The notes: generated from the letters alone by a model not told the origin. A stretch of DNA of 62,266 nucleotides, filler included, from 5 parts of 5 records of this genome joined end to end with filler, not necessarily neighbours in it, one strand, 5' to 3'; positions 2,557 through 53,116 are shown, numbered from the whole stretch's first letter. Numbers and translations: made by a program.

Positions 2557-5406
2557 TTGACCGTTCACGCCGCGCCCATAGTTCTCGATTTCGAGGATGG
2601 AATCGACCGCAAGACGCTCAGGCGCCTGCGGGACCGGTTTCTGCTGGTTAACGAGCAGCGCTGGCGGCGGGCGTGCTCGGCTCTGACCTACCGGCAGCAG
2701 ATGGTGCTGGAGTTGTTGCCGCTGGTTTTTCACCGCAACCATCCGGCCTTGCCTGGCTATCTGGATGGTAACTGCCCGGACGGCTTCAATGGTTACACGC
2801 CCGGCCCGGAAGTGCTGGATGCGGCCCGCCGTTACGCCCGTAGCTTTCACTATCGTGACAAGGGCACTCGAAAGCCTGATCTGGACAGTCTGTTCCTGAT
2901 GGGAAGCCCTGGCACCCTCGGCCACTCGGTGGCCAGTGATCTGGATGTCTGGCTCTGCCACCGTCAGGATTTGCCGGCGTCGGGCATTCGGTGCCTGGAG
3001 CGAAAAGCCGAAAAACTGTCGGAATGGGCCGGTGGCCTGGGGGTGGAGCTGCACGTGTTTGTGTTCTCTGCCGCCGATTGGCGGGCCGGGCGACAGCGCG
3101 TGGAAGTCACCGGGGAAAACTGCGGCAGCGCCCAGCATTTTCTGTTGCTGGATGAGTTCTACCGCACCAGCATTCACCTCGCCGGCCAATATCCGTTGTG
3201 GTGGCTGATCCCGGTAGACCGGGAGGCCGATTACGACCACTGCCGGCGACAGCTGGTGGAGTGTCGGTTTATCCAGGCCAGGGATTACATCGACTTTGGC
3301 GCGGTGCCGGACATTCCTCCCGCAGAACTGCCTGGCGCTGGCATCTGGCAGCTCTACAAAGGAATCGATGCGCCCTGGAAAGCCATCCTCAAGCTGCTGT
3401 TGATTGAATGTTACGCCACCGACCGGGAGCGACCACTGCTCTCGGCCAGCTTCAAGCAGGCGGTTCACAATGGTGTGATTAGCGCCGATGCCCTGGACCC
3501 CTACGTGCTTTTGTACCAGAGACTGGAGCAGTGGTTGCTGGCCCGTGACGGCGCAGATCGGCTGGAGCTGGTGCGCCGAAGCCTGTACCTGAAATCCGGC
3601 TTGCCGCTCAGCCGGGCGGGTATGGTAGGTGACCCCTGGCGGGTCGAGTTGTTGCGCAGCCTGGTTGAAGGCTGGGGCTGGTCATCGGAGGATCTGGGCA
3701 GGCTGGACGATCGTCAGCGCTGGTGTGCCGAGGAAGTGATGGGGTTACGCCGGCGGGTGGTTGCCGAGCTTACCCACAGTTACCGCTTGCTGGCCAGATT
3801 GGCCCGGGAACAGGATGCACAGGCGTCGATCAGCGCCAATGACATCAACCTGCTGGGCCGCAAGCTCTATGCCGCCTTCCAGCGCAAGGCCGGTAAGGTC
3901 GAGCTGATCAATCCTGGGCTGGTGCCCTCGCTGGCAGAAGAGAATCTGTCGTTTCACCATCGCAGTGAACAGGGGGCAGCCGGAGACGGCTGGTTGTTGT
4001 ACCGGGATCTTGAAGATCCGTCCGACGCCTTCTGGCAGCCGGTTATTCGCCGCGCCGGCAACCTGGCTGAGTTGCTTGTCTGGTGTTACTGCAACGGGCT
4101 GCTCAGTCGCAGTACACGGTTGAATGTGCGAGCGGGCCAGAGCGTGGCGTCGGTCAGCGAGTTGAAGGAAATACTGGATGTGCTGGCTGGTTTCCTGCCG
4201 GTGCCTATGCCCCCGGCACCCCGGCAGGCCCTGTCCCGTGCAGTACGGCCGTTACGCAACCTGTTGCTGCTGAATGTGGCGGTGGACCCACAGGCTCATC
4301 TGACCGAGCGGGGGCTGCATAAACTCAGCGCCCGCAACGACTCGCTCGGGTTCAGTGGGGCCCGGGACAACCTGGTGGTGACCATCGACCAGATTACCCT
4401 GAACAGCTGGCACGAAGTCAGTCTGCAGCATTACGCGGCTGGGGATACCCTGATCCAGTGTTTGAAGAATGTGCTCGCTCAGGTGGCGATCAACCCTGCG
4501 GAATTGCCGGATATCCGAGTGATGGCGCCCAGCCGGGGGCACGGACAGGCCATTGCCCGGCGTGTGAGTGAGTTGTTTGCCGATGTGCTCCGACAGTTTT
4601 TTGCAGGCGGCACCGGCCCCCATCCCTTGCGTTATATCATCGAGATGGATCAGCGTTATTTTCTGCTCCAGTTCAATGGCCAGGAGCCGGGGTTTGTTGC
4701 CCTGGATAGCCGCGCGGCATTGATGGATGCCTTGTTCCAGCCCCAGGACAGTTTTCTGCCGGTGGTGCCGGATCGCTATGCTTTGCAGGATGCTCCCCTT
4801 TTGAAAGCGGTATGTGAAGCCTCCGAAGCCGGTAACATCCAGGTATTCTGGCAGCTGCAGGGAGACCAGGGCCAGCTCTGGGTGGTGGATGAGTATGGCA
4901 GTCTGTGGCATCGCCAGCTGAAGGCCCAGCAACGCCGTCATCTACTGGCACCGTTATTGCGATTTCTGGACAGTGTTATTGAGCGCCGGCAGTTGCGCCA
5001 GGCAGATAATCTGGAGCCGGTCGCCGGTATCCGGTGTTACGAACTGGTACGCAGGGATGGCCGATGGCTGGCCGATCCGCGGCCAGAACTGGTCGCCGGA
5101 ATGCCCTTGTCCGGCCTCGAAGTGCAGGCGGTGGGCGTGCAACAGGGTGACAGCATTCTGCGCTTTGATCTGTATTGCAACGATCAGGAGTTTACCGTGC
5201 AGGAATATGGCGACCGGTTGATTCCGGCGGTGGCCCATTACATCCGCTCCCTGCGGCAGAGTCCGGACCCCTATCCGGTGTATCTGACTGACCTGCATCT
5301 GCCCCACGATCTCGATCCACAGCTGTATCAGCGCGATATCCAGACCAGCCAGTACCTGTTCTACCGGGCGCAGTTGGAAGATGCCCTAAACCAGCACCTG
5401 TCCTGA
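2557..5406 (+). CDS. cyaA: Class I adenylate cyclase
   Basis: 949 aa with motifs LLPLVFH-N-H-P-LPGY, LFLMGSPGTLGHSVASDLDVW, GSAQHFLLLDEFYRT, WQLYKGIDAPWKAILKLLL; followed by lipoprotein and lysA as in gammaproteobacteria. Confidence 0.95.
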   Translation: MTVHAAPIVLDFEDGIDRKTLRRLRDRFLLVNEQRWRRACSALTYRQQMVLELLPLVFHRNHPALPGYLDGNCPDGFNGYTPGPEVLDAARRYARSFHYRDKGTRKPDLDSLFLMGSPGTLGHSVASDLDVWLCHRQDLPASGIRCLERKAEKLSEWAGGLGVELHVFVFSAADWRAGRQRVEVTGENCGSAQHFLLLDEFYRTSIHLAGQYPLWWLIPVDREADYDHCRRQLVECRFIQARDYIDFGAVPDIPPAELPGAGIWQLYKGIDAPWKAILKLLLIECYATDRERPLLSASFKQAVHNGVISADALDPYVLLYQRLEQWLLARDGADRLELVRRSLYLKSGLPLSRAGMVGDPWRVELLRSLVEGWGWSSEDLGRLDDRQRWCAEEVMGLRRRVVAELTHSYRLLARLAREQDAQASISANDINLLGRKLYAAFQRKAGKVELINPGLVPSLAEENLSFHHRSEQGAAGDGWLLYRDLEDPSDAFWQPVIRRAGNLAELLVWCYCNGLLSRSTRLNVRAGQSVASVSELKEILDVLAGFLPVPMPPAPRQALSRAVRPLRNLLLLNVAVDPQAHLTERGLHKLSARNDSLGFSGARDNLVVTIDQITLNSWHEVSLQHYAAGDTLIQCLKNVLAQVAINPAELPDIRVMAPSRGHGQAIARRVSELFADVLRQFFAGGTGPHPLRYIIEMDQRYFLLQFNGQEPGFVALDSRAALMDALFQPQDSFLPVVPDRYALQDAPLLKAVCEASEAGNIQVFWQLQGDQGQLWVVDEYGSLWHRQLKAQQRRHLLAPLLRFLDSVIERRQLRQADNLEPVAGIRCYELVRRDGRWLADPRPELVAGMPLSGLEVQAVGVQQGDSILRFDLYCNDQEFTVQEYGDRLIPAVAHYIRSLRQSPDPYPVYLTDLHLPHDLDPQLYQRDIQTSQYLFYRAQLEDALNQHLS

Positions 5407-5960: not shown

Positions 5961-6060
5961 NNNNNNNNNNNNNNNNNNNNNNNNNNNNNNNNNNNNNNNN
6001 NNNNTTAATTAATTAANNNNNNNNNNNNNNNNNNNNNNNNNNNNNNNNNNNNNNNNNNNN
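5961..6060. other. Artificial contig-joining spacer
   Basis: N-run + TTAATTAATTAA (stops in all frames) + N-run; genes are truncated on both sides. Confidence 0.99.
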
Positions 6061-6061: not shown

Positions 6062-6565
6062 CGCAAGGAAATGGCCGACATGATCGGGCCGTTCTCCACC
6101 AACATCATGGCCGGAAACGAGGCCTTGTTCGAACGTGAGATCGGCATTCTGGGACGAAGGGGCGCTTTTGCCCCCGGTTCGCCCCTTGCCCCGCCGCAAA
6201 GCGTGCTGGAGGGCGATGTGACCCTGACGCCTACGGCGCCCATCGACCAGATGCGCGAGGCCGGGCATTTCGAGGCGATCATGGGCTTCCAGGAGTATCT
6301 CGGCATCGCAGCGGGGGCCGATCCTTCCATTCTGGATCTGCACGACCGGGAAGCCGAATACGACTTGACCCGCCGCGCGCTGGGGCTGCCCGCCAAGCTG
6401 AGGCGGCGGCCGGAAGAGGTGGAGGCGCTGCGGCAGGAACGGGCGGCCGAGCAGCAGCAACAGCAGCAGCTTGCGACCGGCGAAAGCATGGCGTGGATCG
6501 CCCGCGACGGGGCGCCGCTTCTGCAGGCCCTGGGCGGCGAGGGAGGGCTGAATGGTCTGGCGTAG
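6062..6565 (+). CDS. Phage portal (head-tail connector), C-terminal part
   Basis: 5'-truncated. EREIGILGRRG...PP...TAPIDQM...LGLPAKLRRRPEEVEALRQERAAEQQQQQ resembles the C-terminus of T7/BPP-1-type connectors; lies upstream of scaffold and capsid. Confidence 0.8.
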   Translation, partial: RKEMADMIGPFSTNIMAGNEALFEREIGILGRRGAFAPGSPLAPPQSVLEGDVTLTPTAPIDQMREAGHFEAIMGFQEYLGIAAGADPSILDLHDREAEYDLTRRALGLPAKLRRRPEEVEALRQERAAEQQQQQQLATGESMAWIARDGAPLLQALGGEGGLNGLA

Positions 6566-6866
6566 CCTCAAACGAGCCGCCCGGCGGCGCCGGGAGCGGG
6601 CTGGAGTGCTGGAACGGGCCTATCGGTCCGTTTTTTTGTGTCTGGACGGTGAAATCGTTCTGGCGGACCTGGCTGCCGAATGCGGCATCTACCAGGCGCC
6701 GCCGGTGAACCTGGAGCCGAGGGCCGGCGGTTATCTGGACGGACGCAAGGCACTTTATGCCCGCATCCTGTCCATGATCCGCATTCCGCCGGAAGAGCAC
6801 GCCGCGCTGCAGGAAGCTGCCCGGCTGGAAATGCTGCCTGAGTTCGAAACTGACGAGGAATATTGA
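6552..6866 (+). CDS. Small phage protein, Bbp19-like
   Basis: AYRSVF...DGEIVLADL...LDGRKALYARILSM pattern, typical of the gene between portal and scaffold in BPP-1-like podoviruses. Confidence 0.7.
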   Translation: MVWRSLKRAARRRRERAGVLERAYRSVFLCLDGEIVLADLAAECGIYQAPPVNLEPRAGGYLDGRKALYARILSMIRIPPEEHAALQEAARLEMLPEFETDEEY

Positions 6867-6868
6867 CG

Positions 6869-7780
6869 ATGTACGACGCGATTGAGCCGGCAGCAGGACC
6901 GGAGGCCGGCGGGCACGACGGTTCTGGACACGATGGTATGGGGCATCACCCTTCGGAGGGGGGAGGTTTCATCGACGGCCTGAGCGATGCCGACCGGGAC
7001 ATGGCCGCCAGCTATGGCTGGCGCGATGCTGCCGGCATTCTGGAAAGCTACCGCTCGCTGGAAGACAGACTGTCCGGGGCGCTTCAGGTTCCGGGTGAAG
7101 ATGCCGACAGCGAGGAGCAGGCGGCCTTTTATGCCGATGTTTCCAGCCGCTGGACGCCGAAGGACGGCTATCGCTTCAAGATGCCCGAGACGCTGCCGGA
7201 AAACTTTCCCTACGATCAGGCCTTTGCGCAGGAAGCCGGAGACTGGTTCAAGGAGGCGGGGCTTCACCCCGAGGCAGCGCAGAAGCTGCACGACCGGTGG
7301 GTGGGCAAGATGGCAGAGCAGTTTTCCGCCCATGAGGAAACGGCTTTTGACGCAGCGCAGAAACAGGGCCAGGCGGCCGAGGCCGCGCACATGTCCCTGG
7401 TCAGGGAATATGGCGAACCGGACAGCGACGGCTACCAGAACGCCATTGCCAAGGCCGACCGGGCGCTGAGCACCCTGAAGACGGCCGGGGTGGACCTGAC
7501 AGGATGGTTTGCGGAAAAAGGCGCCCTGACCACGGCTGGAAGCGACGGTTTGCAGCAGGTGACGGACCCCGTGGCGGTAAAGCTGCTCGCCTTCATCCAC
7601 GACAGCGCCTTTGCGGAAGACGGCCTGAACGGTTTCGGCGCGGGTGGGGAGGGCGGCAACCCCTTCGAGACCGGCAATCCGGACCTCAGGCAGCAGTCGG
7701 ATCTTCTGGAAAACAGCCCCTTGCGGGCGCGGCAGATGATCGTTGCGGCGGGGCGGGATCCACGGTTGTTCGGGCTGTAA
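6869..7780 (+). CDS. Capsid scaffolding protein
   Basis: Acidic; W...ILESYRSLE...VPGEDA...AAFY...P-DGY and FKEAGL-PEAAQKL motifs; ends NPFETGNPDLRQQSDLLENSPLRARQMIVAAGRDPRLFGL; between portal and capsid; RBS GAGGAA before ATG 6869. Confidence 0.8.
   Translation: MYDAIEPAAGPEAGGHDGSGHDGMGHHPSEGGGFIDGLSDADRDMAASYGWRDAAGILESYRSLEDRLSGALQVPGEDADSEEQAAFYADVSSRWTPKDGYRFKMPETLPENFPYDQAFAQEAGDWFKEAGLHPEAAQKLHDRWVGKMAEQFSAHEETAFDAAQKQGQAAEAAHMSLVREYGEPDSDGYQNAIAKADRALSTLKTAGVDLTGWFAEKGALTTAGSDGLQQVTDPVAVKLLAFIHDSAFAEDGLNGFGAGGEGGNPFETGNPDLRQQSDLLENSPLRARQMIVAAGRDPRLFGL
7658..7777 (+). repeat. Scaffold C-terminal tag, copy 1 (40 codons)
   Basis: Homologous to 8383-8467 (68/85 nt identical over 7668-7752, counted by hand) and to 10887-11006 (21/40 aa identical). 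Confidence 0.9.
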
Positions 7781-7921
7781 CAAGCAGTCTTTTCAAGTTG
7801 CCGCGGCGGGGATGAGTGCAAATCGCGTTTGGTTCCGGTTTTCGATTGTTGATCTGGCAGATCATGTGCTTAACCCGAATGTCGGTACACGCGAAGAAAG
7901 CCAGTGGGGAGCGAAACCCTG

Positions 7922-8284
7922 TTAGTTGGTGAGTTCCTCGCACCTGGGAATGATCCACGGTTCGCTGGATGGATCAATATCTGTAGACCAGAAGGCTAGG
8001 TCGCCGGTTTCCAGTACTTCTGCGTGTACCTGATAAACACTGACATCGTCAGAGCCAGGCCATTTCTCGCGGCAGACAAAGGTTTTTCCCTCTAATTTTT
8101 GGCATCTCGCGCTGTGATAAGCGTGTTTTATCAAGAGTAGGTCGTCGATCATCGTGAAATCGTAAGGTATCCATTCTTCTGTGCAGAAATTTTCCTGCGC
8201 TTTTAATTCGTTCGCAGGAAGAACTACTAGTATATTTAAGGCGATAAACTTAATGAAAAATCTCGTCAACGAATTCACTCGCAA
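7922..8284 (-). CDS. Small secreted 4-Cys hypothetical protein (candidate immunity protein)
   Basis: Basic N-terminus plus hydrophobic stretch (FFIKFIALNILVVLPA), four Cys, lower GC than the flanking phage genes; TTG start uncertain. Confidence 0.55.
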   Translation of the reverse strand: MRVNSLTRFFIKFIALNILVVLPANELKAQENFCTEEWIPYDFTMIDDLLLIKHAYHSARCQKLEGKTFVCREKWPGSDDVSVYQVHAEVLETGDLAFWSTDIDPSSEPWIIPRCEELTN

Positions 8285-8501
8285 TGTCTATATCGCAGCT
8301 AAAAACCTTGGGTTGCCTGATCCCCAGGCGCGCCTTGCGGCAACACAAGCATCACTTGAGACTGCATATGGCAAATCTGTCAAGATCGGTAATCCGGCCC
8401 ACAGGCAACAATCGAATCTTCTGGAAAACAACCCTTTGCGGGTACCCCAGATGATCGTGTCCGCCGGTTTCGGAAGAGGTTTTCGTGCCAATTTCAATTA
8501 A
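8253..8501 (+). pseudogene. Internally deleted remnant: N-terminus of a GH73/FlgJ-like muramidase joined to a partial scaffold tag
   Basis: AAKNLGLPDPQARLAATQASLETAYGKS matches the GH73 A-Q-A-x-L-E-[ST]-x-[WY]-G motif; immediately followed by GNPAHRQQSNLLENNPLRVPQMIVSAG (20/27 aa identical to the scaffold tail). Confidence 0.65.
8383..8467 (+). repeat. Scaffold C-terminal tag, copy 2 (partial)
   Basis: Ungapped, 68/85 nt identical to 7668-7752. Confidence 0.9.
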
Positions 8502-8592
8502 GGGTTGATCAGGAACAAATAATGAACATATTCTGATTGTTCAGCATCTCGATGCCTTTCTTCGAGAGCGCTGATATATAAAGGGATCCGGA

Positions 8593-9378
8593 ATGAAATT
8601 GAACACCTTTCGCTTTATCAAGGGCTTTGGGGCAATTCTGAAAGTGTCGGGGGTTATTGCTCTGCCGTCGGTTTGCCTGGCCGCGGACGGTGCTGTCATC
8701 CCGTGGGAACAGCAACCTGAAGTTCTTCGGTCTGAAATAGAGGGCTATGTCAATTCAAGCCTCGATCCCGCAATGTTCAAGGTGCAGGTCGCGGAGGATG
8801 TCCGTGTGGTCTATCTGGGCTTTTCGCCCGAGGAAATCGAACAGAATGCGGAGCAGTTTCCGGATATTCCAGGCCATGGCATCTCGCATCTGCCCTATGG
8901 ACGGAACGAGTATTACAGCACTCCGGTGGATGCGTTGGATTACCAGCTTTCCAATACGATTACCGTGCTCAATCTCGATCTGGACAAGGGACCGAGTTCG
9001 GAAGGTGGCAGTGGCGAGAAGAGTACGGAATTGACTGAAATTCTTGCGCCACAAGGAGAATTCTTTCAATCGCTCGGGTTATCCATTTTTGATTTGATGA
9101 GGGTCAAGGATGGTCGGGGCACTCTCGTTGAGTTCGGCCCGCCAATGTCAGTGTTCGACGATTTCGAGTTTTCCTATCGGGACAAGATTCTAGAGACGCC
9201 TTGCACATCGGTTTTTGAGTTTGCAGGAACTGACGACGGCACACAGGAAAACACCATGGTTGTTTATTCCGGCGCCGAACCCGGCTCCGCCGATCAACTT
9301 CAGTGCCTGGAGATGCAGGCTCTGGTTTTCATGCGGCCTGCGAGCCTACCACTTTCCACAGCGCTCGAAGAGAGATGA
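8593..9378 (+). CDS. Secreted acidic hypothetical protein (candidate orphan immunity protein)
   Basis: 261 aa, probable signal peptide ending CLA-A, two C-terminal Cys, RBS AAGGGA; no family recognised. Confidence 0.65.
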   Translation: MKLNTFRFIKGFGAILKVSGVIALPSVCLAADGAVIPWEQQPEVLRSEIEGYVNSSLDPAMFKVQVAEDVRVVYLGFSPEEIEQNAEQFPDIPGHGISHLPYGRNEYYSTPVDALDYQLSNTITVLNLDLDKGPSSEGGSGEKSTELTEILAPQGEFFQSLGLSIFDLMRVKDGRGTLVEFGPPMSVFDDFEFSYRDKILETPCTSVFEFAGTDDGTQENTMVVYSGAEPGSADQLQCLEMQALVFMRPASLPLSTALEER

Positions 9379-9654
9379 AACTCGCGGGCAGGTGTCGGTT
9401 TACTGCGCATTTCCATAAACCTGCACAAGCTGACACCTGCCTGCAAAGTCGTGCTGTGCCATGAGCAATCGTGCCAACTGATGCCAGCAATCCGTCTGTG
9501 GAGCAGGTCAGACACCCCGGCAGAAAAATCTGGCGATCTTTTCAGTCTCCGGTGCGAAGGCCTGGTTCTCTAACCGGATGCAATTAAAGGTTTTTTTGGA
9601 GCATGTCATGAACAATATGCCGGTATCAAAAGATCAAAATCGGAGAGTTCGATT

Positions 9655-10101
9655 GTGAAACTATCAAGACTATCGGGCATTTTGTTGGGCCTGTTTCTCG
9701 TTGCCTGCGCGTCAGATGAAGAGAGAAATTTATCAGGTGCAAACGGGAAAACGGTGGTTTCGGCCTGTGATCCCGGACCGATTTTCGAACGGCTTGAGAA
9801 AGAAATGAAAACCGGTCTTGCTGGCGCGGATCAGGAGAGGATTTCTCGCGTATACAACGAATATTTTCGAATAGTGAGAATTTGCGACAAAACTCAAGAT
9901 ATGACTTATGTCGTGAAGCAAGAATATGCCGACAAAAGAACCGCCGCATTTCTCGGTTTTCCACCGCCTCCCCCGTATATTTATACGCAAAAAAAATCCC
10001 GAAAAGGTGAGCTTTGCCTCAGTCGGGAGGGCTCGGAAAGTTCGTTGATTTCCGCACCGAAATGGTATTGCGAAAAGGGCGGTTGGTCTGACAACATTTA
10101 G
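9655..10101 (+). CDS. Lipoprotein, hypothetical (candidate cognate immunity protein)
   Basis: MKLSRLSGILLGLFLVA-C lipobox; RBS GGAGAG; four further Cys; ends 14 nt before the tagged ORF at 10116. Confidence 0.75.
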   Translation: MKLSRLSGILLGLFLVACASDEERNLSGANGKTVVSACDPGPIFERLEKEMKTGLAGADQERISRVYNEYFRIVRICDKTQDMTYVVKQEYADKRTAAFLGFPPPPPYIYTQKKSRKGELCLSREGSESSLISAPKWYCEKGGWSDNI

Positions 10102-10115
10102 ATAAGGGCCAAGTA

Positions 10116-11024
10116 ATGGATAATCACGGACAGCAAACGATACGTATCGGTGAGTACAAGCTGTTTGGTGTTGCCTCACATATTATCATCACAGCTCATG
10201 ATGAAACCGGCAAGCAGATCTGGGAAGTCAACGGACTTTCACATGACAGGCAAAATAATATAATTCCAATAGGAAAACCCTGGGACGGAAGCGATACGAT
10301 CAAAGGTCACTTGGATAATTTTTCAAGGATGGGGCATCTCGTCGACAACCAGACAACAATTATCGCGGGGACGCCGGCTGAAATCGAGGCATACAGGATA
10401 AGAGCTCGCAGGGCTATTGATCGGATCAATGCTCAAAACCTTGATTACAGAATCGACAACCAAAATAGCAACAGCGTGGCGGGGACGGTCCTGAAGTCTT
10501 TCGGGATTTCGCCACAGGAATTGCTGAATTCAACAAGGCATCAATTTGAAAAACCAGTCCCAGGCTTTACCGAAGATCTGATCGGCAACAAAGATGTCTT
10601 ACCTGCAGGATCGGCGCAGTCAGATCCTGAATTGGATGGTCAGTCGGCGCATGGCAACAGATTACGAAACCATGTTTCTGCTCCGTTTCCGATGCCGAGA
10701 CCTCATTTGGCAGCGGATGACAACCGTTCGAGGGATAGTCAGCCCGCGTTGCGTGGCGAAAGTGATATTCCGCCGCCATCCTTGAGCGAACCGAAGAGCG
10801 GTGAGGCTTTTGAGAACGGTCCCATTCCGAGCGCCAAACCGAGTAGAGCTCGCTCTATGCTCCAGCCTGATAATCTGAAGAATGCAAATCCATTCGACGT
10901 GAGAAAACCCGACCTCAAACAGCAGGCCTTCCTTTTGGACCATCAGCCGACGAAGGCGAAGCAGCTTATCCTTTCTGCTGGACGAAACCCGGAGTTGTTC
11001 GGGTTCAAGGGTGTTGTCGTTTAA
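10116..11024 (+). CDS. Putative effector: N-terminal catalytic-like domain, Pro/Ser linker and C-terminal scaffold-like tag
   Basis: N-domain has SHIII and DRINAQNLDYRIDNQNSNSVAGTVL, resembling permuted papain/NlpC-P60-like H...Y-x5-N[CS]N folds. Disordered linker. Ends NPFDVRKPDLKQQAFLLDHQPTKAKQLILSAGRNPELFGF. Confidence 0.75.
   Translation: MDNHGQQTIRIGEYKLFGVASHIIITAHDETGKQIWEVNGLSHDRQNNIIPIGKPWDGSDTIKGHLDNFSRMGHLVDNQTTIIAGTPAEIEAYRIRARRAIDRINAQNLDYRIDNQNSNSVAGTVLKSFGISPQELLNSTRHQFEKPVPGFTEDLIGNKDVLPAGSAQSDPELDGQSAHGNRLRNHVSAPFPMPRPHLAADDNRSRDSQPALRGESDIPPPSLSEPKSGEAFENGPIPSAKPSRARSMLQPDNLKNANPFDVRKPDLKQQAFLLDHQPTKAKQLILSAGRNPELFGFKGVVV
10887..11006 (+). repeat. Scaffold C-terminal tag, copy 3 (complete)
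   Basis: Ungapped alignment to the scaffold tail, 21/40 aa identical, many remaining changes conservative. Confidence 0.9.
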
Positions 11025-11402
11025 CTGAACGACTCCTCGAATTTACGTGGTCCGATGCATTACCTCACAAATCGGATCCATCAGACGCCAGATCCTTGCT
11101 CACTTGCGAAGTCCTTTGTGCGCTTTGCCGTCAAAGCAACGCAGGCCTGTGACTGTCATCGCGATATTGCCACCTCGGCTGAGCGATCTTACCCGCTTTG
11201 AGCGATTTCTGCCCCGTTAATCGAGGAAACGGAAGTCCTCCAAAACTGCGTATTTCTTTTTTCAACCGGAACGTTGCTTCAGCTACTTCAAAATTGGAAG
11301 GGGCGACTTTTTGGCAAATTGCCTGCGGCCATGGCGAGGAAACGTGCGTCATCGACAGCAGTCCGTTAGAGCCGGAAAATTGTCAAAATCAAAGGAAATT
11401 CA

Positions 11403-12440
11403 ATGACATCTCAAATTTCAGACATCGTCGTCCCGCGTGTGTTCACCCCCTATATGGCGGAGAACAAGCCGGCCAAGCTGATCATGCTGGAAAAATCCGG
11501 CATTCTGGCCGGTCCGGCATCGGAAATCGGCAAGCGCTTCAAGGCCGGTGGCAACCAGATTGAAGTGCCGTGCTGGGAAGACCTCGATGATGCCGAGCCG
11601 ACGGTGATCGACGACAGCGACAACAAGATCGGTGTCAGCAAGATTACCGCCAGCGACATGAAGGCCTACAAGCACCGCCTGGCCAAGAAATACGGTGCCA
11701 AGACGGTGGCAAGCTATGCCGCAACGGGCCGGGGCGACAGCGCCATGAACCGGGTGGCGGAGCGGATCAGCGCTTACTGGGGACGCCGCAAGGAAGAGCG
11801 CATCATTGCGACGGCTGAAGGCGTGATCGCCGACAATGTCGCCAATGACAGCGGCGACATGGTCTATTCCATCTATTCCGATGTCGGTTCGCCGCCGGCC
11901 GCCAACCGCATCAGCTATCAGGCGATCAACCGTGCGCGCCTGACCATGGGTGAGAACCTGGACGACCTGCGCGTGATCGCCATGCACAGCTTCGTTTACG
12001 GCACGCTTCTGGACGACGAAAAGATCGAGTTCAAGAAACCGTCCGAAGCGCCGTTCGAGGTGCCTTATTATGCCGGGATGATGGTGGTGCATTCGGAAAT
12101 GATGCCGGTGACGGCCGGGGCCAATTCGGACGAATATTCCTGCTTCCTGTTCGCACCGGGCGCATTCATGCATATCGACGAAGTGCCGAACCGCTCGACG
12201 ATCTACGGCAACGAGGGCACCGAAATCACTCGTGATCCGGACATCGGCGACGGTGGTGGCGCCGACTATCTGACCACCCGCCGTTTCGAGCTGATCCATC
12301 CGGCCGGAATGGATTTCACGGCGTCTTCTCTTGCCAAATCCCAGGGAGCGAGCCTGGCCGAACTGCGCAACGCGGCCAACTGGGACCGGAAATACAACCG
12401 CAAGAACGTGAAGTTGGCCTGCCTGAAGGTGAACATCTGA
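11403..12440 (+). CDS. Major capsid protein (HK97 fold, SPP1 gp13-like type)
   Basis: ISDIVVPRVFTPY...SGIL...GGNQIEVPCWEDL; IAMHSFVY; C-terminal LRNAANWDRKYNRKNV; RBS AAGGAA. Confidence 0.9.
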   Translation: MTSQISDIVVPRVFTPYMAENKPAKLIMLEKSGILAGPASEIGKRFKAGGNQIEVPCWEDLDDAEPTVIDDSDNKIGVSKITASDMKAYKHRLAKKYGAKTVASYAATGRGDSAMNRVAERISAYWGRRKEERIIATAEGVIADNVANDSGDMVYSIYSDVGSPPAANRISYQAINRARLTMGENLDDLRVIAMHSFVYGTLLDDEKIEFKKPSEAPFEVPYYAGMMVVHSEMMPVTAGANSDEYSCFLFAPGAFMHIDEVPNRSTIYGNEGTEITRDPDIGDGGGADYLTTRRFELIHPAGMDFTASSLAKSQGASLAELRNAANWDRKYNRKNVKLACLKVNI

Positions 12441-12603: not shown

Positions 12604-12626
12604 GGGCGGCGTTTGCCGCCCTTTTT
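12604..12626 (+). terminator. Intrinsic terminator downstream of the capsid gene
   Basis: GGGCGGC-GTTT-GCCGCCC perfect 7-bp stem followed by TTTTT. Confidence 0.7.
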
Positions 12627-12651
12627 CATTTTCTCGAAAAAGAGGCCAGAC

Positions 12652-12990
12652 ATGGACGAGATCATCATGCGCCGCTTGCGGCATCTCCAGCGCCTGGAAG
12701 AACAACACGAAGCAGATTTTCTGGCCCGGTGCGCCCCACCCAAAACCGAGGCCGAAAAGCGGCAGGAACACCTGGCGGATGCGCTGGCCGCGGACTGGAA
12801 CCGCAAGCAAAGGGCAGCAAGGCAGCCACAGGCCGAAAAGCCGCTGCCCAAAGGCTGGCGCAAGGAGCACTGGAAGACCCAGCAGGCCATGGCCGCGGAT
12901 TATGCCGGCGTGAAGGCCGCCAACAAATACGAGGCTGTTCAGGCGCTTGCTGCCTATGAGGCCAAAGCCGGCGACCTTGCCGCCGCCTGA
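12652..12990 (+). CDS. Small phage protein with possible C-terminal HeH/LEM-like domain
   Basis: RBS GAGG, ATG 12652; helical; C-terminus LPKGWRKEHWKTQQAMAA...NKYEAVQAL. Confidence 0.6.
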   Translation: MDEIIMRRLRHLQRLEEQHEADFLARCAPPKTEAEKRQEHLADALAADWNRKQRAARQPQAEKPLPKGWRKEHWKTQQAMAADYAGVKAANKYEAVQALAAYEAKAGDLAAA

Positions 12991-13011: not shown

Positions 13012-13599
13012 ATGTCGGGAACCGTCAACACAGCCGTTGAGATGGCGAACCTTGCGCTTGCGCATCTGAAGGAAGCGCCCATCCGCGACTTCGATTTTTC
13101 CTCCGTCGCGTCGCGCTGGTTCAGGAACCATTATGCAGCGCACCGGGATGCCTATTTGGCCATGCACGACTGGGACTTTGCCATTGAGCTGGTGAACCTG
13201 CCTGCGGAAACCGAAAAACCGCCGTTTCGCTGGGCCTACCAGTACAAGCTGCCGGCCGGCACGCTTCGCATTCCGCAGCAGAGTGTTGGCGGATCGCCGG
13301 GAGGGACGATCATTCCCTTCGAAGTGGTGGGCCAGCGCATCATGTCGGATCATCCGCCGCCGTTTCCGCTCCGCCATGTGCGCCGGGTGGTGCGGGAGGC
13401 CGAATTCGCGCCGCTGTTCGTGAACGGGTTCGCCCTGTTTCTGGCGGCAGGCTGCGCCCATTCGATCACCGGAAAGAACAGCCGTGCGGAAGCCTTGCGC
13501 CAGGCGGCGCGGGAAGCCTTCGACCAGGCCGGAACATCCGACGCCCTGCAGGGCACGCCGCTGCCCATGATTGACCTGGATATCATTGCAAACAGATGA
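13012..13599 (+). CDS. Tail adaptor / tail tubular protein A-like
   Basis: VEMANLALAHL...WDFA...FRWAYQYKLP...FAPLFVNGFALFLA pattern of podovirus adaptors; overlaps the nozzle start (ATGA). Confidence 0.85.
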   Translation: MSGTVNTAVEMANLALAHLKEAPIRDFDFSSVASRWFRNHYAAHRDAYLAMHDWDFAIELVNLPAETEKPPFRWAYQYKLPAGTLRIPQQSVGGSPGGTIIPFEVVGQRIMSDHPPPFPLRHVRRVVREAEFAPLFVNGFALFLAAGCAHSITGKNSRAEALRQAAREAFDQAGTSDALQGTPLPMIDLDIIANR

Positions 13600-16028
13600 G
13601 CTATCACCTTCAAGCCACATTCAGCCGGGGCGAACTCGACCCGGAGCTGATCTACCGTTCGGACCTGGAACTGTTCCGGTCCTCCCTGGCCGAATGCCGG
13701 AATTTCCTGACCCTGAAACGCGGCGGTCTGCGCCGGCGCGGCGGCACCAAATTTTTTGCAGAGCTGAAGGACAGCAGTCGGCAAGGCTGGCTGATCCCGT
13801 TCGAGTTCGGAAACGGGCAATATTACATGCTTGAGTTCGGCCACCACATGTTCCGGGTGTTCACCAGCGAGGGGCGGGTCGGCACTGTTGAAGTGGCGAC
13901 ACCCTATTCCTCCGAGGTTTTGCCACGGCTGAAATTCGTGCGGTCGACCGACACGCTGTTCATCGCCGGAGGCGGCGTTGCCCCGCAGGCGCTCAAGCGG
14001 TTGTCGGAACTTTCCTGGGCGATCGAACCGATGGCGTTCAGGGATGGGCCCTATCTGGATGTCAATATCTCGCCGACGAACCTGAAACCGGCCGGCACGG
14101 GCAATGCTGTTCCGAAAATGACATCGAACACAGCCCCGAGCGGAGTGGTGTCTGCCTCCAACGGCAGCGCTTCGGCGTGGCAGGTGTTCAGCCGGTCGGA
14201 GGGCAAGACAGTGCTTTCATCCGGGGCAACGGGTTGGGTGCAATACCAGTTCCCCGGCAGCGTCGTGATCGACGCCTACATGCTGCAGGCGCCGAACGAC
14301 AATAGCCAGAACGACGACATGCCCTGGCAGTGGAACATTGAGGCGTCGAACAACGGCTCCGACTGGACAATTCTGGATACGCAGGACGGTCAGGATACCT
14401 GGGCCTCCAACGAATGGCGGGAATATGATTTTCACAACGAAACCGCCTTTACTCATTACCGGCTGAGCTTCACGCAAGGAGGCGGATCTGCTTCGGACAA
14501 TTCCGCCATCGGGCAACTGGTGTTTCACCAGGCTGGCAACGATCAGAACCCCTTCACGCTGACCGCATCAGGCACTGCAGGGATCAATGGAGGTGCCGGC
14601 TTTCAGTCGTCTGACGTCGGGCGGCATATCCGGTTTCGCGGGTCGGACGGGTTCTGGCGCTGGTTCCGGATCCACAGCCGCCAGTCGGCAACCTCGGTCA
14701 AGGTGCAGCTTTTCGGCCAGGCGCTGCAGGACACCAAGGCACAAAGCATCTGGCGGTTGGGGGCATGGTCCGGCACGACGGGATGGCCGGAAACGATCGG
14801 CTGGCACAAGAACCGTCTCGCCTTCGCGGGCACCAGCGAGGAACCACAGAAGATATGGGAAAGCCAGACGGAGGACTTCACCAACTTTTCCGTTTCCCAT
14901 GTTCTGAAGGCATCCGACGCGGTGACCGCGGGCATTCTTTCCGGACAGGTGAACCGGATCCAGTGGCTGGTCGACGATAACGACCTGATTGTCGGCACGA
15001 CCCGCGCGGTGCGTGCCGTCGGCAAGGCGACCGATCAGGACCCTTACGGGCCGGAGAATGTCGACCAGAAGCCTGAAACGAATTTCGGCGCCAATGACGT
15101 CAGCCCGATCAAGGTGGGGTCGGTGCTGATCTACTACGGCCCTTATGGAACCGACATGCGCGAAATGGCCTATGACTTCGGCTCCGATGGCCGGGTGTCT
15201 CAGGCGGTGAGCGAGGTGCAGTCGCATCTGTTTCAGGATGGGATTTCCGGGGCCTGCTACCAGCAATATCCCGATAGCGTCATCTGGCAGTGGGACCAAA
15301 ATGGCCTCGGGATCGGGTTTACCTATGAGCGTCAGCAGCAGGTCTATGGCATGCAGCGCCACGATTTCGGTGGTGTGGTGGAATGTATGGCGGACCTTTC
15401 GGGCGCTGGAGCGGACACCGTCTGGATGATCGTGAAACGGACCGTCGACGGACAGGTGCGGCGGTACATCGAAATCATGCAGCGGCCTTTTCTGGGCGAC
15501 GCTATCGAGGACGCATGGCATCTCGATTGCGGTGCGCGCTACGAAGGCCTGTCGGCAAACACGGTCTCGGGACTTCAGCATCTGGAAGGCGAAGAGGTGA
15601 TCCTTTATGCCGATGGGACCGACTATCCGGCAACTGTCACCGCCGGAGAAGCGAGCCTGCCGAATGGCCAGACAGCGGAAAAGATCCTGGTCGGGCTGAA
15701 TGTTTCGGCGAGGGCGAAGACCTTGCCGTTTCCCGTCAATGCGCAGGATGGCTCAGCCATGGGCCGCAAGATGCGCGTGGACAATTGCAGCATCGCGGTT
15801 CTGGACACCGGGACCCTGAAGGCCGGGTCAGACGAAACCTTTCTGGACGAGCTGATCTACTACCGTGCGGGAGATCCTGCCGGAGAGCCAGCGCCCTTGC
15901 GCACTGGGGTGCTCGACCAGCCAATAGAAACGCGATGGGAAGACGGCGGGCAGCTTACGCTGGCAGCCAGCGGCGGCAAACCCTGCACCATCCTGGCCGT
16001 CAATTTCGGCCGAGACGCGGAGCCTTAA
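13596..16028 (+). CDS. Tail nozzle / tail tubular protein B with an internal discoidin (F5/8-C)-like insert
   Basis: QATFSRGELDP...NF...GGLRRRGGTKF N-terminus; WRLGAWS...GWP...HKNRLAFAG; QQYPDSVIW; insert at ~14110-14535. Confidence 0.88.
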   Translation: MSYHLQATFSRGELDPELIYRSDLELFRSSLAECRNFLTLKRGGLRRRGGTKFFAELKDSSRQGWLIPFEFGNGQYYMLEFGHHMFRVFTSEGRVGTVEVATPYSSEVLPRLKFVRSTDTLFIAGGGVAPQALKRLSELSWAIEPMAFRDGPYLDVNISPTNLKPAGTGNAVPKMTSNTAPSGVVSASNGSASAWQVFSRSEGKTVLSSGATGWVQYQFPGSVVIDAYMLQAPNDNSQNDDMPWQWNIEASNNGSDWTILDTQDGQDTWASNEWREYDFHNETAFTHYRLSFTQGGGSASDNSAIGQLVFHQAGNDQNPFTLTASGTAGINGGAGFQSSDVGRHIRFRGSDGFWRWFRIHSRQSATSVKVQLFGQALQDTKAQSIWRLGAWSGTTGWPETIGWHKNRLAFAGTSEEPQKIWESQTEDFTNFSVSHVLKASDAVTAGILSGQVNRIQWLVDDNDLIVGTTRAVRAVGKATDQDPYGPENVDQKPETNFGANDVSPIKVGSVLIYYGPYGTDMREMAYDFGSDGRVSQAVSEVQSHLFQDGISGACYQQYPDSVIWQWDQNGLGIGFTYERQQQVYGMQRHDFGGVVECMADLSGAGADTVWMIVKRTVDGQVRRYIEIMQRPFLGDAIEDAWHLDCGARYEGLSANTVSGLQHLEGEEVILYADGTDYPATVTAGEASLPNGQTAEKILVGLNVSARAKTLPFPVNAQDGSAMGRKMRVDNCSIAVLDTGTLKAGSDETFLDELIYYRAGDPAGEPAPLRTGVLDQPIETRWEDGGQLTLAASGGKPCTILAVNFGRDAEP

Positions 16029-16031: not shown

Positions 16032-16532
16032 ATGTGTCACCCAGCAATATTGGCTGCGGTCTCCGTTGCGGGATCGCTGGCCGGCGGCGCTGCGCAAGCG
16101 CAGGGCGCGCGCCAGCAGGCAGATGCCCAGGCAAAGGCGGAAGAGCGCCGTGCAGAACTGGCCGACCGCCAGAAGGCGGTCAACCAGACCCAGGCTTCTT
16201 TTGAGCGAAAACGAACCCTGGACAAATACGAAAGGGCACTCGGCTTCAACCGGGCTGCCGGAGCCGAACGCGGGCTATCGCAAACCGGTTCGCTGACTGA
16301 CGTCGCGGACGACAATGCCTTTGAAGCGGCACAAAGCATCGAGGCAATTCGGTATGGCGCGGAAGGCAAGCGGGACAATCTGACCTTCGAGGCGAAAACG
16401 GCCCGGGAGCGGGCACATTCGAGCCGCCGCGCGGGGCGTATCAGCGCCACCGGTGCCATGCTGGGTGGTGTTACCCAGGCTTTCACGACGCTTGGCAATG
16501 CCGCCTACAACGGCGCTTTCAAATTCAGGTGA
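16032..16532 (+). CDS. Internal virion (ejection) protein, T7 gp14-like
   Basis: MCHP + Ala/Gly hydrophobic N-terminus, coiled coil, GL---GS--DV motif, hydrophobic C-terminus; directly after the nozzle. Confidence 0.75.
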   Translation: MCHPAILAAVSVAGSLAGGAAQAQGARQQADAQAKAEERRAELADRQKAVNQTQASFERKRTLDKYERALGFNRAAGAERGLSQTGSLTDVADDNAFEAAQSIEAIRYGAEGKRDNLTFEAKTARERAHSSRRAGRISATGAMLGGVTQAFTTLGNAAYNGAFKFR

Positions 16533-16548: not shown

Positions 16549-18084
16549 ATGGCGAGATTGCAGAAATTCAATGGTGCCGATAGCCTTCCGGGCGTTGGCA
16601 GTCCGCAAGTTGTCGCTGACACCGCGGTTGGAGAAGCTGCGGCAGGGCTGGGACAACAAATCCGCCGTTCGGCAGGGGCTTTCGGTGATCTTGCCGGGAC
16701 CGCTGCTCAAAGACGCAGGCGAATTGAGGACTTTAAAGTTCAAATGGCTCAACGGGAATTTGACGCCAGGTTGAAGGAAAAGGCTGCGGAGGAACAGCGG
16801 CAGTCACCGCCGGGTGGCTTTGGTTTCACAAAAGCCATGATGGCGCATCTTGAAAGGTCGAAGGAGCAGGCGCTCAAGGAACTGCCGGAGAGTTCAAGAC
16901 CTGCTTTCGATCATCATGTCGAGGCGCAGCGGGACCGCTATATCAACGGATTTGCAGCGATTGAGGCAGGGGAAAACGAACGCTATTTTCAGCAAGGTTT
17001 GGAAGAAGAAGGCATTCGGTTGGCATCGGAGGTGCGCGAGAATCCGGATGGTCTCGCAGAAGCATTCGAACAGGCAAGAACGTTGCTGAGGGCTGCACCC
17101 ATGCCGGCCGAAGGCAAAAAGGCAGCCTATGCGAAAATAGGCGAGACACTGGCAGAGGCCTGGGCTGAGACAAGACCACTTGAAGAACTGCTACCAGCAA
17201 TCGGCGACGAACTTGCAAGGCGAGAGTTTGCAGGACCGGAAGGGTTAGGGAATGACCTCGAACAGGTGGGTGAGACCGTCAATGGCCCCGACGGGCCGGA
17301 GGCGTTTGCGGACGAAAGCCAGGTACTGGCAGAGCGGCTGAAACTGCTGTCTGGTGAAACACTGGGCCGAATGCAGGTAAATGCCGTTAAAAGCAGAGCG
17401 GCGATTGCTGCTGGGGAAGTTGGCAAGATCGAACGCCGCATCGAGGCGAGTTTTGGCCAGTTCGACAAATCCGAGATCGAAGCAAACAGTTTGCTCGACC
17501 CAAGGCAGAAAACACGACTGATCGGCCAGCTTGAAGTCGCAAAAAAGGAGCATATCGCGAACATTGAAGCTGCGAACTGGCTCTTGTCTACTGAAATAGA
17601 GGATCGGGGACCGCAGCGCCAGAAGAACGCAGACCGGGCGTTCACCTTTCTGAATAATGGCGAAATCGACCGGGACACACTTGCACTCAAGATTGTGGCA
17701 ACGAAGGGCGTTGTTCCGGAGGGGTATGCCGCCGCCTTGAGCAAGGGAACGCGGAGCAACGAACCCGAGGTCATTGTACGAGCATTCGAAAACCTCGCAA
17801 AGGTTCTTGCGCTGGTACCGCAGTCGGCTGTGTTGGCAAAAAGAGATCGCAATCTTGTCGACAGGTTTGAAAAGTGGACCCTTTTGACAAAAGGCTATGG
17901 ACTGAGCCCTGAGGAAGCCGCGTTGACGCTGGCAAAAGGCAATAATCCTCGTTCTGGGTATAGTCTGGAGGAGGCTTTTGACCGGCAGTTTCCCGGTTGG
18001 GAAGGGAAAGACCTCGATAGCCAGAGTTTGAAAGAGTTGCTGACATCTGCAGATACAAGATTTCCGGAAGGATCTGGCGGATAA
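16549..18084 (+). CDS. Helical internal virion/ejection protein (gp15-like position)
   Basis: MARL...VGEAAAGLGQQI N-terminus typical of podovirus second ejection proteins; Ala/Glu-rich and helical. Confidence 0.6.
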   Translation: MARLQKFNGADSLPGVGSPQVVADTAVGEAAAGLGQQIRRSAGAFGDLAGTAAQRRRRIEDFKVQMAQREFDARLKEKAAEEQRQSPPGGFGFTKAMMAHLERSKEQALKELPESSRPAFDHHVEAQRDRYINGFAAIEAGENERYFQQGLEEEGIRLASEVRENPDGLAEAFEQARTLLRAAPMPAEGKKAAYAKIGETLAEAWAETRPLEELLPAIGDELARREFAGPEGLGNDLEQVGETVNGPDGPEAFADESQVLAERLKLLSGETLGRMQVNAVKSRAAIAAGEVGKIERRIEASFGQFDKSEIEANSLLDPRQKTRLIGQLEVAKKEHIANIEAANWLLSTEIEDRGPQRQKNADRAFTFLNNGEIDRDTLALKIVATKGVVPEGYAAALSKGTRSNEPEVIVRAFENLAKVLALVPQSAVLAKRDRNLVDRFEKWTLLTKGYGLSPEEAALTLAKGNNPRSGYSLEEAFDRQFPGWEGKDLDSQSLKELLTSADTRFPEGSGG

Positions 18085-18173
18085 ACGCAACAGGTTCAAT
18101 CCGGCGAGAGCCCTTTCGAGCCGCCAATGTGACCGTGGCTCAATTTCTGATCTCAATTTTTATAGGGAACTCC

Positions 18174-18203
18174 ATGACAGTAGCAGCCTTGACCGAAGGC
18201 CGC
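18174..18203 (+). CDS. Start of the next phage gene (MTVAALTEGR), possibly tail fibre; truncated
   Basis: RBS AGGGAA plus ATG; only 10 codons visible. Confidence 0.35.
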
Positions 18204-18303
18204 NNNNNNNNNNNNNNNNNNNNNNNNNNNNNNNNNNNNNNNNNNNNTTAATTAATTAANNNNNNNNNNNNNNNNNNNNNNNNNNNNNNNNNNNNNNNNN
18301 NNN
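18204..18303. other. Artificial contig-joining spacer
   Basis: N-run + TTAATTAATTAA + N-run. Confidence 0.99.
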
Positions 18304-18703
18304 GTTGCTCTGGCATGCGGTGCATGGCACCACCTAATAATAAACGGCTAACCATAGAGCGGTAGTGCTGAACAAAGCGCATGGCGACAATGCTGCCATA
18401 GCTGAAACCAACCAGATTAACTTTGCGAACACCCAGTTCTTCCAGTGCGGAAGCTATGCAATCAGAGATAAAATCAAACGAATATTCATGCGGTAAAACG
18501 CCTGTTGCACCGTTGCCGGGTGTATCGAAGGCAATCACCCAAGTATGCTTGGCTAATGCCTTACTCATGCGTTCAATTTGGGCGATATTCTGGAACGCGC
18601 CTCCAATGACTACAAGGGGGATATCACTGGACCCTTTTGCATATTCTTTCACATGAACTGGGAAGCCCTTGTGGCTTAACGTATGCGTCAATGTATCAGT
18701 CAT
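18304..18703 (-). CDS. Alpha/beta-fold hydrolase, N-terminal part (truncated)
   Basis: FDTPGNG and nucleophile elbow GFSYG; RBS GGAG before ATG 18703. Confidence 0.85.
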
Positions 18704-19189
18704 AAACTCTCCAACACGGCACCTTAACCCGTCTAATTTTACTGGCTGAGCAAGTGATTTTATGGCTTGCCCAGCCGGCTGCGTGTGCCATCGCAAGTAG
18801 TATGTAAAGTTAAAAATATACCTTAAGGTGTATAATGCAAGTCAAAAATTACTAATAAATTCGGTAGCTTAGGTAAATTTTGACATATTTTGATACATTT
18901 TGCTACAAAATCATGGTGTGTATAGCCTTGATAGAAAGCGCTATTTTCGGGGCCGGCACTTGCCATAAGTCCTAGGCAAATATGTTTGCGGTCGCCTAGC
19001 ATTTTTGCCAGCTAATAGATGAGATGGTTTGTTTTTTTGGGGCCAAAGGCACTGCATTTCCTCTGGGTAGCAACGACTTAAACGGCAATTGTGCGGATTA
19101 AAACCCAATTGAAACGGTTCGCCAAGTCCACATAGGGTTGTATGGGTATATTGGCTAAATATTCTTCCTTAAAATGGGAGGGATATATA

Positions 19190-30328: not shown

Positions 30329-30428
30329 NNNNNNNNNNNNNNNNNNNNNNNNNNNNNNNNNNNNNNNNNNNNTTAATTAATTAANNNNNNNNNNNNNNNN
30401 NNNNNNNNNNNNNNNNNNNNNNNNNNNN
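30329..30428. other. Artificial contig-joining spacer
   Basis: N-run + TTAATTAATTAA + N-run. Confidence 0.99.
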
Positions 30429-53016: not shown

Positions 53017-53116
53017 NNNNNNNNNNNNNNNNNNNNNNNNNNNNNNNNNNNNNNNNNNNNTTAATTAATTAANNNNNNNNNNNNNNNNNNNNNNNNNNNN
53101 NNNNNNNNNNNNNNNN
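53017..53116. other. Artificial contig-joining spacer
   Basis: N-run + TTAATTAATTAA + N-run. Confidence 0.99.

Follow-up and report, generated by a model that had tools for sequence, protein, structure and literature searches.

Why should the last residues of a phage scaffolding protein recur at the ends of unrelated proteins encoded between the scaffold gene and the major capsid gene? The question is raised by a podovirus-like phage locus in a 62,266-nucleotide stretch of DNA (hereafter the window), which consists of five contigs joined by spacers of the form N44-TTAATTAATTAA-N44 (positions 5961-6060, 18204-18303, 30329-30428 and 53017-53116). The only phage part of the window is the 12.1-kb contig at 6061-18203. 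An earlier description of this DNA (the sequence-only reading) had noticed copies of the scaffold tail on two other open reading frames (ORFs) and had proposed a natural tag by which variable effectors are packaged into the phage head. Having compared the locus with its relatives, we favour, on balance and with some caution, the interpretation that the scaffold tail is a natural capsid-loading tag for enzymes that would be ejected and act on the cell envelope, and that the proteins encoded beside them are possibly their inhibitors. The tagged proteins are called cargo below, the neighbouring exported proteins partners, and the mobile units that they form cassettes.

Tail copies in the window and in related prophages

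The scaffold ending and the ORFs were as the sequence-only reading had described them. Recounting gave exactly its figures, with 21 of 40 residues identical, without gaps, between the scaffold tail and the copy at 10887-11006, and 68 of 85 nucleotides identical for the copy at 8383-8467. BLASTP of the scaffold protein returned the products of 10116-11024 (21/43 identical, E 1e-12) and 8181-8501 (21/33 identical, E 1e-11). When 24,042 forty-residue windows from all six frames of the phage contig were compared with the scaffold tail, no unrelated one exceeded 11/40, and the two copies scored 20 and 21. Both copies lie in the 3.6-kb insert that separates the scaffold gene from the capsid gene (7781-11402), whose guanine-plus-cytosine (GC) content is indeed lower (0.46-0.53) than that of the flanking phage genes (0.59-0.69). 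Of the two tagged ORFs reported in the insert, 10116-11024 is intact, but 8181-8501 is a broken relic and not a second intact gene. For about 68 codons it is identical to an intact gene of a related locus (L005:5391-6338, 315 aa). It then passes into a scaffold-like tail fragment that lacks the last ~8 residues, and finally rejoins a sequence found 3' of the stop codon in L005, i.e., former non-coding DNA. One base at window position 10152, near the start of the intact cargo gene, is missing in the contig of one metatranscriptome run (X1); the other three runs show no gap.

To place the locus among its relatives, we used locus sets from a capsid-protein scan (37 loci from IMG/VR and 79 in bacterial genomes, designated by L numbers), on all of which a hidden Markov model (HMM) of the tail was run. 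Loci with a capsid protein 84-99% identical to that of the window all came from Roseibium/Labrenzia genomes or bins, plus a Rhodobacterales bacterium (L040) and a Pseudomonadota bacterium (L042). The counted set comprised 26 non-duplicate loci with a complete scaffold-to-capsid interval; duplicates were dropped (L038=L005, L044=L008, L047=L012 and L053=L011), and the near-duplicates L016 and L048 were both counted. Extra tail copies were detected in 18 of these 26 related prophages, with one to four per interval and 34 in all. Six and seven tail copies were found in L041 and L046, where the scaffold falls outside the DNA stretch covered. A tail copy nearly always closes its reading frame, with 0-7 residues after it, the exceptions being fragments. 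The HMM search suggested with the sequence-only reading thus placed the tail on about ten unrelated N-terminal families in the Roseibium/Labrenzia relatives, and not on scaffolds only.

More distantly, a second copy of the last 45 residues of the pre-capsid gene was present in none of 71 relatives (capsid 28-47% identical), within the flanks covered, and the Roseibium tail HMM recognised the tail of the single pre-capsid gene in 26 of them. Taken together, these results indicate that scaffolds have long had this tail and that only the Roseibium phage clade came to reuse it. The possibility that the tail belongs elsewhere to true scaffolds only therefore holds for the 71 distant relatives but not for the Roseibium clade, where cargo carries it too. 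A search of 1.84 billion representative proteins with a tail profile (44 positions, 29 tails) yielded 219 matches at E<=1e-3, of which 55 reached E<=1e-10. Nearly all of the best 150 of the 219 end within a few residues of the C-terminus; 35 of these 150 have a Roseibium-type scaffold body (according to an HMM built here) and 115 do not, the weaker members of the latter group including scaffolds of other phages. For the 302-aa cargo, 5.8 billion clusters yielded no more than 6 relatives. A tblastn search of 50,697 phage records gave no match for this cargo and 4 weak partial matches for the scaffold.

The tail is also conserved where its surroundings are not. In proteins P0002-P0004, orthologues of the 10116-11024 product at 47-49% identity, residues 1-155 and the last ~42 are kept, and the ~100-residue linker between them has diverged past alignment. 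We estimated the proportions of nonsynonymous (pN) and synonymous (pS) differences in two orthologous cargo pairs (L010/L013 and L007/L009). In both pairs, pS was saturated throughout (0.64-1.01), and pN rose from 0.06-0.24 in the N-domain through 0.27-0.34 in the tail to 0.45-0.61 in the linker. Judging by these alignments, the tail in its cargo context is under purifying selection as a protein. A portable constant C-terminal module on unrelated proteins between the scaffold and capsid genes, as first proposed, is therefore borne out by comparison.

The tails also bear marks of exchange. Those of first cargoes are often hybrid, with a C-terminal half 0.82-0.95 identical to the resident scaffold tail and an N-terminal half that differs (L001, L004, L007 and L016), and one transcriptome strain lacks exactly 7774-8460, from tail to tail. 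The relic at 8181-8501 likewise marks a deletion between tails. Hybrid tails and these tail-to-tail deletions lead us to conclude that recombination inside the tail repeats adds and removes cassettes, and across relatives the locus is, as anticipated, a polymorphic array of swappable cassettes. Could the copies then be functionless scars, left where cassettes (morons) entered at the scaffold 3' end and dragged pieces of it along, with accidental fusions as a result? The same hybrids and deletions show that recombination occurs there, and fragments, or copies after a short frame, make up 14 of the 34. In L046, three near-identical scaffold-type tail fragments (1061-1369, 3207-3479 and 4987-5145), each after a cargo tail, look like repeated insertion scars. 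Yet the tail closes long frames of about ten unrelated families with a stop so close to the motif, it is kept in the orthologues whose linkers cannot be aligned, with a pN well under that of the linker, and twelve of its positions are invariant across 29 different tails. We thus regard scarring as a highly unlikely explanation of the copies.

Cargo enzymes and their exported partners

Cargo families were drawn from the first 130 residues, because single linkage had over-merged proteins whose linkers resemble each other; about ten were obtained. Two cell-wall hydrolase domains were identified above the Pfam cut-offs: Glucosaminidase (PF01832) on L005:5391-6335 (1.8e-14, 54.9 bits), with further matches to endolysin families of PHROG, and SleB-type Hydrolase_2 (PF07486) on L016:3240-4412 (3e-8, 34.7 bits). 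Matches of tagged cargo to the catalogued toxin domains Ntox44 (0.0049, 17.7 bits, cut-off 24) and Tlde1_dom (0.00092, 20.1 bits, cut-off 30.1) remained below the cut-offs, and DUF6973 was likewise a sub-threshold lead. The proposed likeness to polymorphic toxin systems is supported for the polymorphic, cassette-built locus; among the cargo domains, a firm name can be given only to cell-wall hydrolases, of a kind carried in phage virions. By eye, one cargo family shows a HEGAH motif and another an ETGG motif in a lysozyme-looking stretch.

As the sequence-only reading had pointed out, the constant part is C-terminal, unlike that of MuF toxins: the variable part is N-terminal in all tagged ORFs, and no MuF domain was matched in Pfam scans of the window ORFs, 10 cargo proteins of the loci and 51 tagged proteins. 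None of 35 tagged ORFs begins with an N-terminal hydrophobic segment, from which we conclude that cargo stays in the cytoplasm, where heads assemble. The intact cargo of the window gave no Pfam match, and a profile of its family run against PDB sequences yielded nothing meaningful (best E 0.47). In L043 (58-603 and 678-1367), its homologue P0006 is N-terminally truncated and the upstream 181-aa ORF looks transposase-like by eye, which suggests that an insertion sequence may have disrupted the cargo gene.

Putatively exported proteins do lie in the insert, namely the lipoprotein of 9655-10101 (lipobox LVAC) and the products of 8593-9378 and 7922-8284(-), both with N-terminal hydrophobic segments. 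Their families are associated with particular cargo families across the loci. The 9655 lipoprotein family precedes the 10116 cargo family in seven of eight cases, with 14 nt between the two genes each time, the eighth (L043) being truncated. The 7922 family stands beside the glucosaminidase cargo, divergently transcribed, in 4/4 cases and down to 45% identity. A cargo family with a HExxH motif has its own partner family in all three cases away from a locus edge, and three more cargo families show such pairing in 2/2 cases each. An untagged gene lies directly upstream of 27 cargo genes; 18 of these neighbours pass the hydrophobicity threshold themselves and 23 belong to a family that passes; for ORFs outside the arrays (plus strand, at least 100 aa), an N-terminal hydrophobic segment was found in 9 of 96. 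Eight of the 17 untagged families seen at least twice have such a segment and a ninth, at 1.98, narrowly misses the threshold; these nine make up nine of the ten families left after removal of probable antisense ORFs and fragments. An arrangement like that of effector-immunity pairs, as envisaged earlier, is supported by the family-by-family pairing with adjacent exported proteins, except that the partner lies upstream or is divergent, not downstream.

Partners also occur without cargo. The 8593 family, alone in the window, lies upstream of intact or truncated helical 'C2' cargo in L041, L004, L005 and L038, and members of fam3, fam4, fam12 and fam15 lack cargo in L041, L046 and L016. The lipoprotein of 9655-10101 gave no Pfam or PHROG match, and the product of 7922-8284 none in Pfam or PDB. 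An AlphaFold2 (AF2) model of the latter is all-beta with eight strands (mean predicted local distance difference test, pLDDT, 75), for which Foldseek returned nothing from PDB at E<=0.001 (best 0.37, generic small beta-barrels); an Atlas lead to a 'C-type lysozyme inhibitor' cluster scored 0.88, below the 0.9 bar. Another protein of 330-338 aa recurs on the opposite strand of the arrays (L016:6652-7650(-), L039:1012-2004(-), L040:2108-3124(-) and L048:7567-8565(-)). In L016 it matches the metallophosphoesterase family PF00149 (8.5e-11) and has an RR-type N-terminus with a weak TAT_signal match (0.039, below cut-off).

What might such pairs do? Peptidoglycan hydrolases are known components of phage virions, e.g., T7 gp16 and phiKMV gp36, and are released from the particle into the periplasm. 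These are domains of fixed structural proteins, whereas the Roseibium hydrolases are free-standing, swappable and tagged, each with a candidate inhibitor gene. T4 offers a phage-coded periplasmic inhibitor, Spackle, which acts on the incoming gp5 lysozyme and excludes superinfection (PMC7677548). Since virion hydrolases are an established strategy and Spackle is a precedent for the inhibitor, an enzyme together with its inhibitor is the likeliest content of a cassette, and by this analogy we tentatively propose it. Each cargo gene would then move with the gene of an exported or membrane protein that is most likely its cognate periplasmic inhibitor, which may shield lysogens or exclude related phages. 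A more far-reaching scheme, in which virions carry swappable periplasm-acting effectors by way of the scaffold tail, the prophage makes the inhibitors, lysogens are immune to particles with the same cargo, cassette-specific superinfection exclusion or kin discrimination results and the tail repeats are the shuffling sites, is rather doubtful.

The tail as a putative coat-binding module

The tail has the consensus NPF..(P)DL..Q..LLE.NP..A.QLI.AAGRDP.LFGL, and its twelve invariant positions, in alignment numbering, are N5, P6, F7, L14, Q17, P25, A28, I32, A35, R37, P39 and F42. In an AF2 model of the intact cargo, made from a 6-sequence alignment, its helices were predicted at residues 267-276, 278-287 and 292-295 (pLDDT ~80), giving a putative helix-turn-helix at the C-terminal extreme. 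The same motif closes the scaffold and also proteins with a PF06810 Phage_scaffold body. Six of the seven proteins scanned (P0070, P0071, P0083, P0098, P0100 and P0122; 214-231 aa) carried this body, all above the cut-off, and they end in NPF..NLT.QG....P..A..LI..AG..P..YGL. The motif is tied to bona fide scaffolds by these PF06810-bodied proteins, and the tail is, as far as such motif matches tell, common to scaffolds with unrelated bodies.

The C-terminal helix-turn-helix of the P22 scaffold binds coat protein, and fusing it to foreign proteins loads them into engineered virus-like particles. The likeness lies in the predicted helix-turn-helix at the extreme C-terminus, with no sequence similarity claimed; P22 loading is man-made, whereas the Roseibium tail would be a natural counterpart. 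In phage 80alpha, a C-terminal helix-and-hook of the scaffold (RIIK) binds the N-arm of the coat protein, and CpmB of SaPI1 reuses this element (PMC5644958). There, an otherwise unrelated protein bears the scaffold's C-terminal coat-binding element and so enters the procapsid, much as proposed for the Roseibium cargo. CpmB is, however, the alternative scaffold of a satellite and changes capsid size, whereas the Roseibium carriers are the phage's own enzymes, belong to many families and have long linkers. The Roseibium tail, with 42 residues and no RIIK, would follow the same principle in another family.

On the interpretation that we favour, the ~42-residue helix-turn-helix would anchor the scaffold to the inside of the capsid as it assembles. 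Accessory enzymes of one Roseibium/Labrenzia podovirus-like clade would have acquired a copy of it at their C-termini, set off by a long flexible linker. Cargo would be made along with coat and scaffold, since its genes are part of the late operon and immediately 5' of the capsid gene. Procapsids would capture it through the tail and the head would retain it. Infection would then deliver it into the envelope of the next cell, several cargoes being putative cell-wall hydrolases in this role, and recombination between tail repeats would gain, lose and swap the cassettes. Contigs of RNA libraries from three studies cover 10116-11024, and in two of four runs one contig spans the cargo into the capsid gene; this support is weak, because contigs show neither level, strand nor a single transcript and DNA carry-over is possible.

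Coat binding need not imply carriage. Tagged proteins could bind coat in order to alter or block assembly, or to hinder superinfecting relatives, much as CpmB shares the scaffold's C-terminal coat-binding motif and competes with the scaffold (PMC5644958), and cargo tails are close to the resident scaffold tail. The tagged bodies are nevertheless enzymes (PF01832 and PF07486) and globular domains on a long linker rather than dimeric helical scaffolds, their genes belong to the phage's own late operon, and an assembly role does not explain the pairing with exported proteins. We consider such modulators or decoys quite unlikely. The tail could also have another shared function, such as docking to the portal or to late proteins, a degradation or timing signal, or release of accessory lysins at lysis. 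Coat binding by this tail is suggested by analogy, and the hydrolase domains have matches among PHROG families with an endolysin annotation. This alternative is unlikely, as the C-terminus binds coat in the P22 and 80alpha scaffolds, the tail ends PF06810 scaffolds of unrelated body and so acts as a scaffold-specific module, and the cargo gene, placed right before the capsid gene, is positioned like that of encapsulin cargo. When the capsid protein and the cargo tail were modelled as a complex, the score was 0.02 (mark 0.34), which speaks neither for nor against binding.

Several points weigh against capsid loading as proposed here. Eight of the 26 loci have no extra copy (L008, L011, L014, L015, L017, L019, L020 and L050); with the broken copies counted above, this indicates that cargo is dispensable and turned over fast. 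Many of the loci are closely related, and counts such as 18 of 26 are not independent events and overstate their number. The product of 6863-7780 is assigned as the scaffold by gene order only, since its gene sits between the portal and capsid genes; the 305-aa protein matched no curated scaffold family in Pfam, and a scaffold profile matched no solved structure in PDB and no Pfam family. Scaffolds normally exit the head, so the tail alone is no guarantee that cargo is retained. The N-domain of the intact cargo gave Atlas leads only (DUF3750, 0.92; TseH, a type VI secretion system effector family, 0.89), and its AF2 model is poor as a whole (mean pLDDT 45), with an N-domain of low confidence that is not interpretable. 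As for the partners, export was called by a crude hydrophobicity rule and not by SignalP, and Pfam recognised no family in ten partner proteins save the metallophosphoesterase in L016.

Gene order, known systems and implications

The features of the phage contig are listed in Table 1. The array of the window comprises three cassettes: 7922-8284(-) with the relic, 8593-9378 alone, and 9655-10101 with the intact cargo gene. In cassette-free relatives, the scaffold orthologue stops 20-30 nt short of the capsid gene. A promoter and terminator scan of 7600-11500 detected 3 and 7 sites, respectively, vs 2.8 and 5.2 expected, i.e., no signal. A canonical ejected core protein is also coded by the phage, as a PHROG 418 homologue.

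Table 1. Annotated features of the phage contig, in window coordinates
Feature	Position	Strand	Basis or remark
Portal (head-tail connector) gene, C-terminal end	6071-6565	+	PHROG 332 head-tail adaptor 1.5e-13; Pfam Head-tail_con weak, 0.0052; cut by contig start at 6061
Bbp19-like small phage protein	6552-6866	+	Pfam PF25181 6e-14, 52.1 bits vs cut-off 25
Head scaffolding protein, 305 aa	6863-7780	+	By position; 42-residue tail coded at ~7652-7777; PHROG 3742 3e-18
Small exported all-beta protein, 4 conserved Cys; candidate periplasmic inhibitor	7922-8284	-	Adjoins glucosaminidase cargo; family-specific
Glucosaminidase cargo relic	8181-8501	+	~68 N-terminal codons and cut-down tail copy 8383-8467; DNA alignment with L005
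Exported 261-aa protein, partner without adjacent cargo	8593-9378	+	N-terminal hydrophobic segment; family in 13 loci
Lipoprotein, lipobox LVAC; candidate cognate inhibitor	9655-10101	+	14 nt upstream of cargo gene
Intact tagged cargo, 302 aa	10116-11024	+	N-domain ~155 aa, Pro-rich linker ~100 aa, tail copy 10887-11006, then 5 residues
Major capsid protein	11403-12440	+	PHROG 247 major head protein 1.8e-72; 92-99% identical across Roseibium prophages
Two tail genes, T7-like podovirus	13012-13599, 13596-16028	+	PHROG 394 5e-31; PHROG 376 6.9e-161
Internal virion protein homologue	16032-16532	+	PHROG 418 2.2e-16

A second variable site lies just 3' of the capsid gene, where 3.8-4.5 kb are found in L009, L012 and L016 vs ~170 nt in the window (up to the homologue of 12613-12990), and two loci carry a tagged ORF downstream of the capsid gene (L039:6207-7364 and L040:5054-6340). 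The 125-aa ORF at 12613-12990, right after the capsid gene, is 29-100% identical in relatives and has no PHROG match; a decoration or cement protein would be plausible at this place, as in BPP-1-like phages. Elsewhere in the window, GC content drops to 0.39-0.47 at 17750-19000, across the end of the phage contig and the next spacer, and a 949-aa ORF (2557-5406) lies on another contig with no linkage to the phage contig.

Other phages are known to address proteins to their heads. In T4, the internal proteins IPI-III and Alt carry an N-terminal capsid targeting sequence of ~10 residues, which binds the scaffold core and is removed by the head protease. As in the Roseibium locus, a constant short address would mark variable proteins that are packed into the head and injected, and the loci vary between relatives; the Roseibium address is instead C-terminal, is 42 residues long and duplicates the tail of the scaffold itself. 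No head protease turned up in the stretches covered, though no search was aimed at one.

Family 1 encapsulins resemble the locus in another respect. Their cargo ends in a targeting peptide of ~10 residues that binds near an N-terminal helix of the shell protein (PMC8346489). In both, a C-terminal peptide stands behind a flexible linker and the cargo gene adjoins the gene of an HK97-fold shell. Encapsulins nonetheless have no portal, tail or DNA, and their peptide is unrelated, whereas the Roseibium shell is that of a working phage, its capsid gene being flanked by portal, tail and internal virion protein genes. MuF toxins (PMC5576092) and polymorphic toxin systems (PMC3482391) have an N-terminal constant module, a C-terminal toxin and an immunity gene downstream. 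The Roseibium locus shares with them a constant module (head-associated or for trafficking) combined with variable effector domains, adjacent genes of presumed protective role, swapping by recombination and partner genes without effector. Its polarity is reversed and the partner gene is upstream or divergent. Diversification of cassettes by recombination is visible, as in polymorphic toxin systems, in the hybrid tails, relic tails and cargo-less partner genes.

The sequence-only reading knew of no description of this arrangement, and none was found in a full-text literature search, whose reach left out most subscription journals and supplements. Closer precedents than it had named nevertheless exist in the internal proteins and Spackle of T4, the targeting peptides of encapsulins and the 80alpha scaffold with SaPI1 CpmB. 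The principle that one fixed address can mark differing head cargo was established before (T4, encapsulins and CpmB), as were phage polymorphic toxins with a head module (MuF). What is new is that the address duplicates the 42-residue tail of the scaffold itself and does so in a phage of podovirus type, that the cargo genes form a hypervariable array of cassettes flanked by tail repeats, and that each cargo has a specific exported partner.

The choice of head proteins by tailed phages is, to our knowledge, understood in detail for T4 only, and we know of no general address in podoviruses. A portable, natural 42-residue address would, if confirmed, explain how accessory proteins enter podovirus heads. 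Capsid engineering would likewise gain a ready-made loading tag, from a system present in cultured marine hosts that are not pathogenic (Roseibium aggregatum IAM 12614, whose locus L038 has an intact 315-aa glucosaminidase cargo, R. album and R. marinum). Cargo and exported proteins pair one to one, which suggests that related prophages are engaged in an arms race over penetration of the cell wall. Finally, a cargo enzyme with a flexible linker and a C-terminal peptide, encoded next to an HK97-fold shell gene, is the layout of an encapsulin operon, and bears on how encapsulins acquired their loading peptides. If the tail does load cargo, the Roseibium phages would be a living example of a scaffold tail becoming a cargo-loading peptide, a step assumed for the origin of encapsulins from prophage capsids.

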